Assembly: GCA_043812495.1 (NCBI GenBank)
Contig: JBDRMG010000026.1
Location: 1-49,284, forward strand
Length of the DNA stretch: 49,284 bases
DNA from: Candidatus Omnitrophota bacterium
GTDB lineage: Bacteria; Omnitrophota; Gorgyraeia; Zapsychrales; JBDRMG01
Reading direction: 5' to 3'
Of this stretch, positions 33,366-44,306 are shown one piece after another; positions within the stretch are counted from its first letter, which is position 1; each line of letters begins with the position of its first letter. The notes below the pieces were generated by a model. The model was given only the letters and a program-made list of their open reading frames with translations, searched no databases and was not told the DNA's origin. The position numbers and the translations under genes are program-made.

Positions 33366-34667
33366 TTAGTCGATCTTAACACGACCACGTCCTTCGCAAT
33401 AAGGACAATCGACAAATGAGATCGATTCAATGGTTTTACCCGTACGTGCTCTTGTCATCTCCACGAGTCCGAGAGAGGAAATCTTGGATACTTCCGTCTT
33501 TTCATGATCCCGGCTCAAGGCCTTTTCTAAATGGTCCAACACCTGACGCTTATGCGCCTCCCTGGACATATCAATAAAATCGATCACAATAATGCCGCCA
33601 AGGTCCCGCAGGCGCAATTGCCGGGCAATTTCCGGAGCGGCTTCCATGTTCACCATGAAGGCCGCTTCCTCAGGGGACGCATGGGTCTTGAACTTTCCGC
33701 TGTTGACATCCACCACAATCAAGCCCTCGGTCGGTTCAATCACAACATAGGCCCCGGATTTTAGAAAGACGCGTTTATCAAAAATTTTATTCAACTCTCC
33801 GGAAATATTTTTTGAATCAAAAAGCGACACATCCTCTTTGGCGTAAATGATCTTATGGACCATGCTGCGCCCGATGAGGGTCTGAACAAAGCGACGTATT
33901 TTAACATACTCTTCGTGAGAATCAACAATAAGTTTGTCGACATCCTCCGTCAAAAGATCGCGCACGATGCGCCACAACAGATCATATTCTTTCCAGATGA
34001 GCGCCGGCGCTTTGTTTTGCTCAGACATTTTCTTGATTTTCTGCCACATATTAAGAAGAAACTTGGCATCGCGGAGAATTTCATTCCTGCTTTTCTTAGA
34101 AGAAACTGTTCGGATAATAAACCCTGAATTCTTGAAGGAATCTAAATCTTTTGATATTTCCTTCAGACGTTGGCGCTCCTGAATGTCTTCTATTCTTTTG
34201 GATACACCAAAATGCCTATCAAATGGCATGAACACGACAAAACGACCCGGCAAAGTGATATGCGTGGTCAGTCGGGCTCCCTTCGTTCCAAAAGGTTCCT
34301 TGACGACTTGGACCAGAACCTCGTCTCCTTTCTTAAAGGCAACGGGACCGGGGGTCTGCTTCTTATCTTTTTTCTTATCTTTTCTTTTGAGGAATTTACC
34401 CAAAAACTTGGCCGGACCGGAAATGTCGTCTTCCACCAGAGGGCTTACGGTATCTGTAAGATAGAGAAAACCGTTTCTCTCATGGCCGATATTGATAAAC
34501 GCCCCGTTGATGGAGGGAAGGACGCTCTCGACTTTGCCTTTATAGACATTTCCTAGGAGGGCTTGATCGTGATGGATCTCAATGTAAAAATCATCGAGTT
34601 TACCGTTTTCAACGATCGCAACACGTTTTTCATTCTGCTGAATATGAACAAGGATTTCTTTTGACAA
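33366..34667 (-). CDS. rng: ribonuclease E/G family (short RNase G-like)
   Basis: S1 domain GNVYKGKV, DVNSG, GGIIVIDFIDM, CPYCEGRG. Confidence 0.93.
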   Translation of the reverse strand: MSKEILVHIQQNEKRVAIVENGKLDDFYIEIHHDQALLGNVYKGKVESVLPSINGAFINIGHERNGFLYLTDTVSPLVEDDISGPAKFLGKFLKRKDKKKDKKQTPGPVAFKKGDEVLVQVVKEPFGTKGARLTTHITLPGRFVVFMPFDRHFGVSKRIEDIQERQRLKEISKDLDSFKNSGFIIRTVSSKKSRNEILRDAKFLLNMWQKIKKMSEQNKAPALIWKEYDLLWRIVRDLLTEDVDKLIVDSHEEYVKIRRFVQTLIGRSMVHKIIYAKEDVSLFDSKNISGELNKIFDKRVFLKSGAYVVIEPTEGLIVVDVNSGKFKTHASPEEAAFMVNMEAAPEIARQLRLRDLGGIIVIDFIDMSREAHKRQVLDHLEKALSRDHEKTEVSKISSLGLVEMTRARTGKTIESISFVDCPYCEGRGRVKID

Positions 34668-42223: not shown

Positions 42224-42377
42224 CATTCTACGGCTCTTCTGTCCATAGCGCTACTTCTCAGACAGTAAATTTCTCCGGTCTCACGGCCGTAGTATTATTG
42301 ACTTCGTACTTCGTTTGTCCGATTTTCACCTTAGGCTCAAATCGGACCCTTTTCATTCTACGGCTTTACGGCCGCAG
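42224..42377. repeat. composite palindromic repeat element
   Basis: Direct repeat CATTCTACGGCT (42224-35, 42354-65), each closed by GCCG(T/C)AG; central hairpin GTCCGATTT/AAATCGGAC (42317-25/42339-47). Confidence 0.7.
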
Positions 42378-42390
42378 TTTTTGAAGCAGG

Positions 42391-42429
42391 AATAAAAAAA
42401 GGGGGCTTATTAAGCCCCCTTTTTTTATT
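42391..42429. terminator. bidirectional intrinsic terminator after pilA
   Basis: Perfect palindrome AATAAAAAAAGGGGGCTTA-T-TAAGCCCCCTTTTTTTATT. Confidence 0.93.
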
Positions 42430-42445
42430 TCTACTAACAGCCCTA

Positions 42446-42838
42446 TTAGTCAGGATTCAGAACACCACCAGTCTCGATTGTGTAAGTATCAGAACCGGAA
42501 GAATGCAAAGTTTGAGGTGTTGCTATGACAGTATAGGTTGCATTTCCAGGTAATGTATAGGCATACGTGAAACCTGAGGAAGTTGACCCTTCATAAGCTT
42601 TATTGAGATATGCAGGATTAGCACCAGTCAAGTCGGCTTCAGCTGTTGGGTAATTACCGCTATTAGCTGTTGCGTATGTTTCAATCGCCGTAGAAATAGT
42701 CCTCAACGTACTTTGCGCTAAGGCGTCATTTGCTGAAAGACGAGCACGAAGTAGGTTAGGGATAGCGATGGCAGCCAATAAAGCGATAATGGCCACAACG
42801 ATCATGATTTCAACGAGTGTAAAACCTTTTCTATTCAT
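42446..42838 (-). CDS. pilA: type IV major pilin candidate (125-aa mature chain, no Cys)
   Basis: MNRKG|FTLVEIMIVVAIIALLAAIAIP; AAGGAGGT 8 nt before ATG 42838 (in-frame ATGs also at 42844, 42934); own terminator. Confidence 0.88.
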   Translation of the reverse strand: MNRKGFTLVEIMIVVAIIALLAAIAIPNLLRARLSANDALAQSTLRTISTAIETYATANSGNYPTAEADLTGANPAYLNKAYEGSTSSGFTYAYTLPGNATYTVIATPQTLHSSGSDTYTIETGGVLNPD

Positions 42839-42839
42839 T

Positions 42840-42990
42840 TTCATTGACCTCCTTCCCGGATTCAGATTGGCTTCAAACTTTCTTAAGGACCCCAGAAGAA
42901 AGAGATCAATGAATTTACGAATTATACCAGTCATTCTATCTCTTGCTCTCCTGGCATCTGCTCAGTGAGCTTTCAGCCTAATCCCTTTAT
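42840..42990 (-). ncRNA. candidate two-state cis-regulatory RNA leader of pilA (family not recognised)
   Basis: ~120-nt nested rod (42983-42865) versus an alternative 18-bp helix 42913-42896 with 42857-42840 covering SD and AUG. Confidence 0.6.
42921..42929 (-). promoter_or_regulatory. possible extended -10 promoter P3
   Basis: TGgTATAAT consensus extended -10; no -35 match. Confidence 0.4.
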
Positions 42991-42997
42991 TATATTT

Positions 42998-43026
42998 ATG
43001 TTATCAATACCTCCTTTCCTTGTCAA
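42998..43026 (-). promoter_or_regulatory. possible sigma70 promoter P2 downstream of the riboswitch terminator
   Basis: TTGACA (43026-43021), 17 nt, TAACAT (43003-42998). Confidence 0.55.
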
Positions 43027-43034
43027 GATATTTC

Positions 43035-43069
43035 AAACAAAAAACCTATTCCTCATTCGAAGAATAGGT
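43035..43069 (-). terminator. intrinsic terminator, riboswitch expression platform
   Basis: ACCTATTCTTC-GAAT-GAGGAATAGGT (11 bp, one G-U) then TTTTTGTTT. Confidence 0.88.
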
Positions 43070-43079
43070 ACACAAATAC

Positions 43080-43166
43080 GCTCTTGGCAACTGGCTATCC
43101 TAACCGTTAGTCAGGACCCTGTAGTTTTGTGCCCCATCCTTACGAATGGTTTACCTTTTTCAAAGC
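43080..43166 (-). ncRNA. c-di-GMP-I (GEMM-I) riboswitch aptamer
   Basis: GGTAAA-CCATTC-GTAA-GGATGG-GGCACAAAAC..AGGG-TCCTGAC-TAACG-GTTAGGA-TAGCCAGTTGCC fits GEMM-I layout; G at the G20-equivalent position (43155). Confidence 0.92.
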
Positions 43167-43181
43167 TACAAATTCAATTAA

Positions 43182-43210
43182 AGTATAGCATGAGAAATTA
43201 CCATTGTCAA
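43182..43210 (-). promoter_or_regulatory. sigma70 promoter P1 upstream of the riboswitch
   Basis: TTGACA (43210-43205), 17 nt, TATACT (43187-43182) with extended TG. Confidence 0.85.
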
Positions 43211-43280
43211 ATCGTCGTCTCTCAAAGTATCCTTTTTGGTCATTTTGACGAGGTAATTCACTTAAAATTAAATATATCAA

Positions 43281-44306
43281 TCAGTTAAAACTTTCTAGGG
43301 CAAGACCAATAGGGACAACTAAAGAAGAACTCAGGGTCTCTATTTTGTTCTTTTCAATGGTTGGGGCGTACAAAATCTTATCGGTAGGCTTAAAAATGGC
43401 GATTTCACGATTAAGATTTTCCTTAAGAAAGTCGGCCAGCCAAACCAGGTGGGATGTTCCGCCACTCAAGAATATCTCATCCACGACCATACCAAATTCA
43501 CTTTCATAATAATCAAAAGACAAGTAAATTTCGTTTAACAGATTGCCCAGAACCGGCTCAACAATCTTAAACTTTTCCTTATCCTGGGAATCAAGGGTGT
43601 ACTTCAACTGCTCAGCTTCGTCCAGATTGACTTCTAGCTTCTCTTTCAACAGATGCGTAATGTTATCGCCCCCGATTTGGACATCCCGCATAAAATAGGA
43701 AGAAAACTCTTTAATAATATTGATATTTGTAATCCTGGAACCAATATTAATAAGACCAATCGTTTTTTCCTCTTTCTCGGGATAATTCAGCTGAAAGGCG
43801 TTCTTAAGGACTATGGAATCGATGGTCAGAACCTCCGGGTCAAGCCCGATATCCTTTAAGATTTTTATTCTTTCTTCAATATCCTGCTTTTTGGCTGCAA
43901 CCAAAAGGACCTTCATATTCTTCGCTTCGGGCTTGTTGTTAATGACCATATAGTCACATACGATATCGCTTTTATCGAACGGAACATATCGGTCGATTTC
44001 AAATTCCATCGCGCCCTTTAAGTCCTCCTTGGTCATTTGAGGGAGAACCAGATATCGAACAATAACATTTTCGGGATTTAAGGACGTGTTGACTTTCTTG
44101 TGCGACAGATCAATGGCTTCGCAGGCGACCTTAATAGCATCCATCAGTCCGTTCAGTTTATTGACATTAATCCGACTATATCCGACCGCCTCCAACGTAA
44201 AGACATCTTCTTTCTTGCTCATTTGGGCAATCTTAACGGAGAAATTACCGATATCGATTCCCGATGCCATTTCTGCTTTTTGCGCACTTTTCTTCATTCC
44301 AAACAC
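43281..44306 (-). CDS. pilM: type IV pilus actin-like protein PilM (module B)
   Basis: GIDIGNFSVK, VLLVAAKK, INIG, LSGGTS, IGLAL; AGGAG before GTG. Confidence 0.92.
   Translation of the reverse strand: MFGMKKSAQKAEMASGIDIGNFSVKIAQMSKKEDVFTLEAVGYSRINVNKLNGLMDAIKVACEAIDLSHKKVNTSLNPENVIVRYLVLPQMTKEDLKGAMEFEIDRYVPFDKSDIVCDYMVINNKPEAKNMKVLLVAAKKQDIEERIKILKDIGLDPEVLTIDSIVLKNAFQLNYPEKEEKTIGLINIGSRITNINIIKEFSSYFMRDVQIGGDNITHLLKEKLEVNLDEAEQLKYTLDSQDKEKFKIVEPVLGNLLNEIYLSFDYYESEFGMVVDEIFLSGGTSHLVWLADFLKENLNREIAIFKPTDKILYAPTIEKNKIETLSSSLVVPIGLALESFN

Follow-up and report, generated by a model that had tools for sequence, protein, structure and literature searches.

Conserved hairpin in the leader of the major type IV pilin gene of Omnitrophota as a possible on/off control of pilus production

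Described leaders and the pilin locus

Leaders of three elements (anti-anti-SD, anti-SD, and SD) that sequester the Shine-Dalgarno sequence (SD) are known from translational riboswitch platforms and from the rpoS leader of E. coli, which is opened by DsrA, RprA, and ArcZ. A type IV pilin gene under the control of a c-di-GMP-II riboswitch is known as well, namely pilA1 of C. difficile. For the major pilin gene pilA2 of C. perfringens, RNase Y was reported to process the RNA ahead of the gene and thereby stabilize the transcript (accessible part of PMC6958937, citing Obana 2017), and the structured 5' UTR of B. subtilis hbs is cut by RNase Y, with a strong SD protecting the mRNA (accessible part of PMC5737220). 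The STAB-SD of B. thuringiensis cry3A is an SD-like GGAGG located far upstream of the start codon (accessible part of PMC4113751). Nearly all Omnitrophota encode type IV pili, which are regarded as a basis of attachment to other cells and possibly of predation on them, according to the accessible part of a genomics paper on these bacteria (PMC10066038); in that part, RNAs are annotated with Rfam only, and neither a riboswitch nor a pilin leader is mentioned. No description of the leader presented here was found in the open literature on Omnitrophota, riboswitches, and pilins, with subscription-only papers outside the search.

The window, i.e., the whole stretch of 49,284 nt from a Candidatus Omnitrophota bacterium that was analysed, carries a type IV pilus cluster on the minus strand. 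From pilM to the gene of the major pilin, the arrangement is P1, c-di-GMP-I-GGC aptamer, intrinsic terminator, P2, and the region of a long imperfect hairpin, designated here as the rod (Table 1). Two minor-pilin-like genes are located downstream of the 130-aa pilin. The same P1 arrangement is present in relatives, and the sequence of the terminator hairpin was found again there. When the locus was compared by BLAST with 40 relatives from the same order, the aptamer and/or the pilin 5' end was matched in all of them, and 53 pilin starts were extracted from the fetched loci of the order. According to own-genome searches, the pilin leader is single-copy. The start ATG at 42838-42836 is backed by homologues (MNRKGFTLVEIM) and lies 9 nt after GGAGG, and the alternative in-frame ATG at 42842-42844 follows GGAGG by just 3 nt.

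The leader resembles the three-element leaders in that one strand can pair with either an upstream partner or the ribosome-binding site (RBS), and translation would be set by the helix formed. Its polarity is reversed, however, as the anti-SD is predicted to be masked and the SD to be free (ON) by default. It also differs in having no aptamer or known sRNA site, with a 9-nt loop as the sole conserved unpaired sequence, and in that the SD-capturing branch is present in only part of the pilin-leader family. With pilA2 and hbs, as far as the accessible parts of the two papers describe them, it has in common a highly expressed mRNA, which in one case encodes a major pilin, together with a strong SD and a structured leader; this genome also encodes RNase Y. 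It is not homologous in sequence or structure to those leaders as they are described there, and cleavage of the pilin leader is only putative. Furthermore, these hosts are Firmicutes with RNase J1, while a search of this genome gave no RNase J C-terminal domain.

Table 1. Features of the pilin locus, listed in the direction of transcription (positions in the window)
Feature	Position	Strand	Basis and remarks
PilM gene, upstream of the pilin gene	43281-44306	-	Pfam PilM_2, 3.1e-55
P1, promoter-like, TTGACA-17-TATACT with TG; drives riboswitch	43182-43210	-	consensus scan, 11/12 matches
c-di-GMP-I-GGC aptamer; neighbor of the rod, separate from it	43082-43164	-	Rfam RF03167, 63.5 bits (gathering score 59), full model 1-80
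Intrinsic terminator of the riboswitch unit, 11-bp stem and T run	43033-43069	-	terminator scan; hairpin 43069-43044
P2, promoter-like, TTGACA-17-TAACAT with TG	42998-43026	-	consensus scan
GAAAGGAGG box, SD-like, within the P2 spacer	43010-43018	-	read from the sequence
Rod, imperfect hairpin of about 120 nt, base abutting the SD	42858-42984	-	minimum-energy fold and covariation
Upper rod 5' strand CCAGGAGA...AAUGA, masks X (anti-anti-SD)	42931-42954	-	pairs with 42912-42891 in the minimum-energy fold
Apical-loop motif UGGUAUAAU, family consensus YGNYAUNAU; candidate trigger-binding site	42921-42929	-	39 leaders
X, upper rod 3' strand, masked anti-SD	42896-42913	-	18 contiguous pairs with 42857-42840
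Asymmetric internal loop AAUCUG, 3' strand near the rod base	42863-42868	-	conserved AAU in the leader alignment
RBS segment, partner of X in State 1	42840-42857	-	sequence reading and scripted pairing check
SD run GGGAAGGAGG	42857-42848	-	
Likely pilin start codon, ATG	42836-42838	-	homologues start MNRKGF/MNKKGF; GGAGG-ATG gap 8-9 nt
Major type IV pilin gene, 130 aa	42446-42838	-	Pfam N_methyl 1.5e-08; PilA4 weak, 0.001

The rod and its conservation

The rod (State 2) is the minimum-energy fold of 42998-42830, with -46.2 kcal/mol and a z of -2.75, and 2 of 200 shuffles were as good; these single-sequence statistics are moderate. An earlier note on this DNA, made from the sequence alone, had described a rod of about 120 nt, and the helices listed there are present in the minimum-energy fold, but the register of the base (GAUU/AAUC) had to be corrected by homology. 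The minimum-energy fold pairs AAUCU 42868-42864 at the rod base. By homology, in contrast, GGAUU 42984-42980 pairs with AAUCC 42862-42858, and AAUCUG 42868-42863 is an internal loop, at the place of which homologues have GAAU or UAAU. The terminator scan reported no terminator at the 3' end of the rod, which is followed by GGGAAGGAGG and no U run.

At Rfam gathering thresholds, nothing matched the rod, and the only match of the locus was the c-di-GMP-I-GGC aptamer. When Rfam 15 was searched over 42400-43350 with E up to 10, the leader gave just CRISPR-DR47 (15.5 bits, E 8) and snoR100 (15.2 bits, E 6.4), both at chance level. The impression of the earlier note that the structure belongs to no known family was borne out in this search.

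Within the order, the rod was found in 39 pilin leaders, and other Omnitrophota genomes have it too. With a covariance model derived from a single sequence, that of the window, 18 leaders were aligned, of which 16 were distinct. Both covariance-model alignments were fitted to the rod structure, which favors rod pairing; with this in mind, 88.1% of the cells are paired in the alignment of the 16 distinct sequences, compared with 61.1% in shuffled (0 of 500 as high) and at most 52.1% in slid ones, and both sides change in 41 of the 42 pairs, with a covariation score of 0.495 versus 0.171. The second alignment, equally fitted to the rod, has 24 rows with 90.6% paired cells (57.7% shuffled, at most 49.2% slid). 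Its rows span the rod and end at the pilin start, and 32 of the 56 matches obtained with filters off (E up to 10) were dropped, many matches being spurious. On a plain MAFFT alignment of 20 leaders, which is not structure-aware, RNAalifold gave 3 pairs. Searched against 79 further pilin loci, the single-sequence covariance model had 8 matches at E up to 1. Beyond the order, a match of the loop motif was properly placed in 26 of 75 additional pilin loci taken from public genomes, and rods were found in at least 14 of the 18 that were folded.

Two measures do not depend on any alignment. The fixed-window MFE z averages -2.16 and is below -2 in 20 of the 39 leaders, and the sense strand folds better than the antisense strand in 29 of the 39, by a mean of 6.6 kcal/mol. 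This advantage of the sense strand indicates an RNA feature rather than a DNA feature. Covariation of the rod is strong, and together with the better folding of the sense strand it upholds the proposal of a conserved structure acting at the RNA level on the mRNA strand. Thus, the rod is a genuine RNA element conserved in Omnitrophota, and its family is uncatalogued.

The loop motif YGNYAUNAU is positioned at -72 to -155 from the start codon (mostly about -88) in 39 of the 53 extracted leaders, and in most of these 39 it occupies the apical loop of a long hairpin. In the motif-anchored alignment of the 39 sequences, G38, T42, and T45 are invariant, and A44 is conserved in at least 90%. These 9 nt are the only strongly conserved unpaired sequence. 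Inspection by eye for pairing of the motif with the 3' internal loop, the early coding region, or the 3' UTR revealed no covarying partner. CsrA as a reader of the loop is unsupported, as no CsrA gene was found and the loop has no GGA. A leader peptide of the ermC/cat type is unlikely as well, since the loop triplet is AUG in just 8 of the 39 leaders; no conserved short leader ORF was recognized in the table of the 39 leaders.

As in the known control of pilin genes by c-di-GMP riboswitches, an aptamer lies upstream of the pilin gene here, but the rod is a separate RNA located past the riboswitch terminator and a second promoter. It is not part of the c-di-GMP-I aptamer or its platform: the aptamer ends at 43082 and the terminator at about 43033, and a conserved promoter follows. 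In 30 of the 39 leaders, an exact TTGACA followed at 16-18 nt by TAnnnT separates the rod from the riboswitch terminator, in 21 with a TG extension. Rod leaders without an aptamer at the Rfam threshold are L004-L006, L009, L013, L034-L038, and L041. Because P2 is conserved in between and rods occur without a riboswitch, the rod is considered an independent module. The placement of the leader in series with the riboswitch, as the earlier note had it, is therefore valid for read-through transcripts only. The start predicted for P2 is at about 42991, i.e., about 7 nt ahead of the rod, and the median distance from the predicted start to the rod is 8 nt (range -2 to 26) in the 17 leaders whose fold spares the promoter. 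In most leaders, the rod ends 14-20 nt ahead of the start codon.

An exact 305-nt RNA-library contig bridges 43155-42851, from the aptamer to the SD, with DNA carry-over possible and a contig not being a proven single transcript. Read-through transcripts from aptamer to leader may exist. RNA-library contigs over the coding region stop at 42862 and 42871 (two runs of one study), and one contig of 82 nt folds back between 42860 and 42886. The stops were discounted as evidence of processing, as a single study supplied both runs and the ends of an RNA are not visible in contigs. A third run had no cover of the coding region, to which no weight was given either, and runs X4-X15, which contain only 0.04 of the sequence words, are no evidence of habitat.

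The GGAGG box at 43018-43010 is similar to the STAB-SD of cry3A in its location far upstream of the pilin start, and it is a neighbor of the rod, not a part of it. In difference from cry3A, the box lies inside the P2 spacer, so it would be carried by P1 read-through transcripts only, and RNase J was not detected. A GGAGG-like box is present upstream of the rod in 25 of the 39 leaders, in 18 of the 39 within the promoter spacer.

Pairing of the ribosome-binding site

According to the earlier note, X has two mutually exclusive partners, the RBS segment (State 1) and the rod 5' strand (State 2), and this was confirmed. A script found the 18 contiguous pairs between X and the RBS segment as described, with 14 Watson-Crick and 4 G-U pairs, and each of the four deviations from Watson-Crick pairing is a G-U on the mRNA strand. 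This helix is the longest contiguous one between the RBS window and the upstream leader; dinucleotide-preserving shuffles of that leader gave a mean of 7.9 and a maximum of 15 pairs, and 0 of 3000 reached 18. It spans the SD and the spacer. The SD is covered as claimed, but AUG 42844, thought to be buried together with it, is not the start backed by homology, which is at 42838, and the helix stops 2 nt short of this likely start codon.

The P2 transcript 42991-42800 has a calculated ensemble energy of -54.5 kcal/mol, which becomes -49.7 kcal/mol when State 1 is imposed. The rod is thus ahead by 4.8 kcal/mol at 37 °C, 2.9 kcal/mol at 15 °C, and 2.3 kcal/mol at 10 °C, the last being within the error of the energy model. 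The two folds, which the earlier note expected to be near-equal, are predicted to be unequal, with the narrowest gap at 10 °C. In the rod state, the RBS is predicted to form a local hairpin with the early coding region that costs about 6 kcal/mol to open. Without the 5' partner, the predicted opening cost of the RBS is 16.8-17.9 kcal/mol instead of 4.3-6.2 kcal/mol, and the RBS is then fully paired, in line with the view that loss of this partner buries the RBS. Within the rod, X is almost fully paired and has no free toehold, and the rod is transcribed first. Since the rod is favored by 4.8 kcal/mol, is made first, and keeps X paired, no spontaneous switching is expected.

Among homologues, support for State 1 is weaker than for the rod. 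The SD context ATCCRGRAAGGAGG is kept among the aligned leaders. In the register of the window, State 1 has 70.1% paired cells in the alignment of the 16 distinct sequences, compared with 64.2% in shuffled and 50-60% in slid ones, and 16 double-change cells compared with 9 in shuffled ones; covariation of the SD-burying helix is weak, other than that of the rod. When the RBS window was matched to the upstream leader, the best duplex had z < -2 in 12 of the 39 leaders (mean z -1.34), and in 24 it involved the 3' strand. Of 14 additional leaders with a rod, 2 have a duplex with z < -2 and 12 one with z of at least -2. In total, anti-SD complementarity is significant in 14 of 53 leaders and at chance level in 27 of the 39 and 12 of the 14. 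A family of five leaders (L035-L038 and L041) has kept the rod and the loop motif, and the anti-SD signal is absent in all five.

When 3' strands and RBSs were combined within and between leaders, cognate duplexes had -15.6 kcal/mol and non-cognate ones -13.3 kcal/mol, and the residual was -2.3, a value that none of the 5000 permutations reached. In this test, the window, L003, and L015 were each ranked first both ways. With the spacer and AUG alone, the difference is marginal (-5.18 versus -4.66, 126 of 5000 permutations). Removal of the 5' strand raises the predicted opening cost of the RBS by at least 3 kcal/mol in 25 of the 39 leaders and by at least 6 kcal/mol in 12, and in 5 the change is zero or below. 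At full length, the SD is predicted to be buried (cost above 10) in 6 of the 39 leaders, including L003, which is of the window's own family, and L015, so the predicted ground state differs between homologues. The anti-SD is real, and probably selected, in the lineage of the window and in about one quarter to one third of the family. It is not a trait that defines the family, and the SD-capturing branch seems to be present in only part of it.

Possible mode of action and its alternatives

The reading tentatively preferred here, to which we give somewhat less than an even chance, is that the pilin leader works as a default-ON latch with a masked anti-SD rather than as a freely equilibrating bistable switch. 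The rod would fold first during transcription and be the ground state in this genome. With the SD and the start codon at 42838 outside the rod, the mRNA would be translatable and have a structured 5' end, and the 5' strand (42954-42931) would keep X masked. If this strand were displaced or lost, X would capture the RBS in the 18-bp helix and translation would be off. Candidate routes to the loss of the 5' strand are a factor reading the conserved loop, cleavage in the loop, and 5' decay; the conserved loop could thus be the site of action for a trans-acting factor or a nuclease. The latch would act alike on P2 transcripts and on riboswitch read-through transcripts. A wider version, possible but rather unlikely, is that such leaders form a phylum-wide class of factor-operated latches, in which a protein or an RNA reads the loop and sets the anti-SD as masked (pilin made) or RBS-capturing (off).

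Alternatively, the rod and the loop may serve mRNA stability or processing with no translational switch, a reading that is a serious one and yet on balance doubtful. In this case, a structured 5' end beside a strong SD would protect the abundant pilin mRNA, or a site for RNase Y or RNase E/G would yield a stable mRNA with a short leader, and the match between X and the RBS would have arisen as a side effect of a purine-rich/pyrimidine-rich helix or as an addition particular to some lineages. Stabilizers of the ompA type are hairpins placed no more than a few nt from the true 5' end, and they prolong the half-life of the mRNA. The rod lies 7 nt from the start of the transcript here, with this 5' end being predicted only; the short median distance from the predicted P2 start and the end of most rods 14-20 nt before the start codon agree with a role in stability or processing, but the predicted 5' tails reach 26 nt, which is a long stretch for the protection of a 5' end. 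Conservation of the rod and the loop motif also extends far beyond that of the anti-SD, whose duplex has z < -2 in 14 of 53 leaders. An invariant loop sequence, on the other hand, is needless for a pure stabilizer, and 18 pairs into a non-conserved spacer (0 of 3000 shuffles), together with cognate matching of the 3' strand and the RBS in about a dozen lineages, are hard to obtain as a by-product.

As for processing, RNase Y and an RNase E/G homologue are encoded in the genome, the AAU-containing internal loop on the 3' strand near the base is conserved, and pilA2 (PMC6958937) and hbs (PMC5737220) are precedents as described in the accessible parts of these papers. Against this, no RNase III domain was found in 20 of 21 genomes of the order, and the RNase J C-terminal domain was not found here. 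RNase III processing itself was rejected despite the stem present at the rod, since PF00636 and PF14622 were not found in this genome (90.5% complete) and PF14622 was found in 1 of 21 genomes of the order. The scarcity of RNase III in this clade may explain the tolerance of long near-perfect duplexes in an abundant mRNA.

It is improbable that the loop motif acts as DNA, i.e., as a -10-like non-template element forming an internal promoter or a sigma-dependent pause site at the rod apex. In the form YG-n-YATnAT, the motif has its invariant G at the place of the extended -10 G and an invariant last T, and the window reads TGGTATAAT (TGnTATAAT-like). Transcripts from an internal promoter would begin with X and have the SD buried from birth; a transcript beginning just past the loop is indeed predicted to have a fully paired RBS, with an opening cost of 16.8 kcal/mol. 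In promoter -10 elements, however, the -11 A is normally best conserved and the -10 T is normally weak, while the -11 equivalent is C or T in several leaders, the -12 is C in many, and the -10 T is invariant. Furthermore, there is no -35 partner, and the consensus scan reports no promoter there. The location of the motif in the apical loop of a covarying RNA helix favors a reading at the RNA level. Support is also lacking for an ops-like loading site of a NusG paralogue, as only one NusG-family gene was found.

A freely bistable, riboswitch-like RNA with near-equal states, shifted by a small ligand or by temperature in series with the c-di-GMP riboswitch, is very improbable. The two states are mutually exclusive, the gap of 2.3 kcal/mol at 10 °C is inside the error of the energy model, the predicted ground state varies among homologues, and an RNA-library contig links the aptamer with the leader. 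Against free bistability, there is no conserved multi-helix pocket, with the 9-nt loop motif alone conserved as unpaired, and nothing in the rod leader is suggestive of a small-molecule aptamer. At 37 °C the rod is formed first and is ahead by 4.8 kcal/mol, P2 stands between the riboswitch and the rod in 30 of the 39 leaders, and rods without a riboswitch exist. Because the SD is free in the ground state, the leader does not behave as a heat-opened RNA thermometer; the SD lies outside the rod, and State 1 gains at low, not at high temperature. Chance complementarity in an AT-rich intergenic region with no function, to which only the moderate single-sequence statistics (z -2.75) would point, is hardly conceivable, as it is contradicted by conservation and covariation across dozens of genomes and by 0 of 3000 shuffles reaching the 18-bp helix.

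The RNA in front of the main pilin gene may be a new on/off control of pilus production, the switching itself being a proposal made from predicted folds. As a leader of about 120 nt with an invariant loop that recurs across dozens of uncultured genomes, it is open to probing and mutagenesis in vitro and can be used as bait for its partner without culturing the host. If the factor-operated latch is true, it would be a second, c-di-GMP-independent input to the Omnitrophota pilus, located behind the riboswitch/promoter pair. If the masked anti-SD works as proposed, synthesis of the major pilin would be under three stacked controls, namely the c-di-GMP riboswitch, the second promoter, and the translational latch.

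Pilin start and copies of the leader

Two in-frame ATGs are present at 42836-42844 on the minus strand, and that at 42838-42836 (MNRKGFTLVEIM) is favoured over 42844-42842 as the probable start of the major pilin, judging from homologues and SD spacing. A 162-aa ORF from ATG 42934, which appeared in a mechanical ORF listing, crosses the rod, the conserved hairpin of the pilin leader, and is not conserved in relatives.

Units of leader plus pilin are duplicated in tandem at five of the homologous loci (L008, L017, L025, L033, and L024). In L017, the second unit has an identical rod, but neither the riboswitch nor TTGACA. A covariance model built from the window's rod sequence alone gave a match of 22.5 bits (E 0.0018) at about 42348-42448 on the minus strand (L001:1019-1119). 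This match covers the pilin terminator and the beginning of the next intergenic region, and is probably due to the terminator hairpin. An 82-nt contig from RNA-library run X1 is a fold-back chimera, consisting of plus strand 42833-42886 followed by minus strand from 42860, and is the kind of artefact that arises from cDNA self-priming at the 3' end.

Promoter-like sites, riboswitch and SD-like box

An SD-like box lies inside P2, the second promoter-like site, located between the riboswitch terminator and the rod. Of the 39 leaders with the apical-loop motif, 25 have a GGAGG-like box 5' of the rod, and in 18 such a box falls within the promoter spacer. L037 and L041 have theirs 3' of a -10-like element, where it would thus be part of the transcript. 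The window's box is reminiscent of STAB-SD, the SD-like element far upstream of the cry3A start codon in B. thuringiensis (PMC4113751). Unlike in that case, it would be present only in RNA reading through from P1, the promoter-like site driving the c-di-GMP-I-GGC riboswitch.

The terminator hairpin has unusually high sequence conservation among relatives. By eye, its 5' arm appears able to pair with purine-rich segments within the aptamer, in which case the riboswitch would terminate transcription with c-di-GMP bound. Aptamer-like sequences with large insertions were found 5' of the rods in L010 and L016, with scores under the Rfam gathering score. Directly 3' of the P1 -10 hexamer, several relatives (L015, L017, L020, L008, L007, and L011) have a second TTGACAAT-like word, a possible operator or overlapping promoter; the window has TTAATTGAAT at this position.

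Coordinates of features in the window
Feature	Position	Strand	Remarks
Aptamer	43082-43164	-	
Terminator hairpin	43044-43069	-	
SD-like box GAAAGGAGG	43010-43018	-	between P2 -35 and -10, within spacer 43020-43004
RNase E/G family gene	33441-34256	-	434-aa frame, PF10150, 9.6e-96

Ribonucleases

The window carries an RNase E/G family gene as well as the pilin locus. Neither PF00636 nor PF14622, the RNase III domains searched for, was detected in the genome from which the window comes, and PF14622 was detected in only one of 21 genomes of the order (this genome and 20 relatives, 71-98% complete). Loss of RNase III, if true, would be unusual among bacteria.
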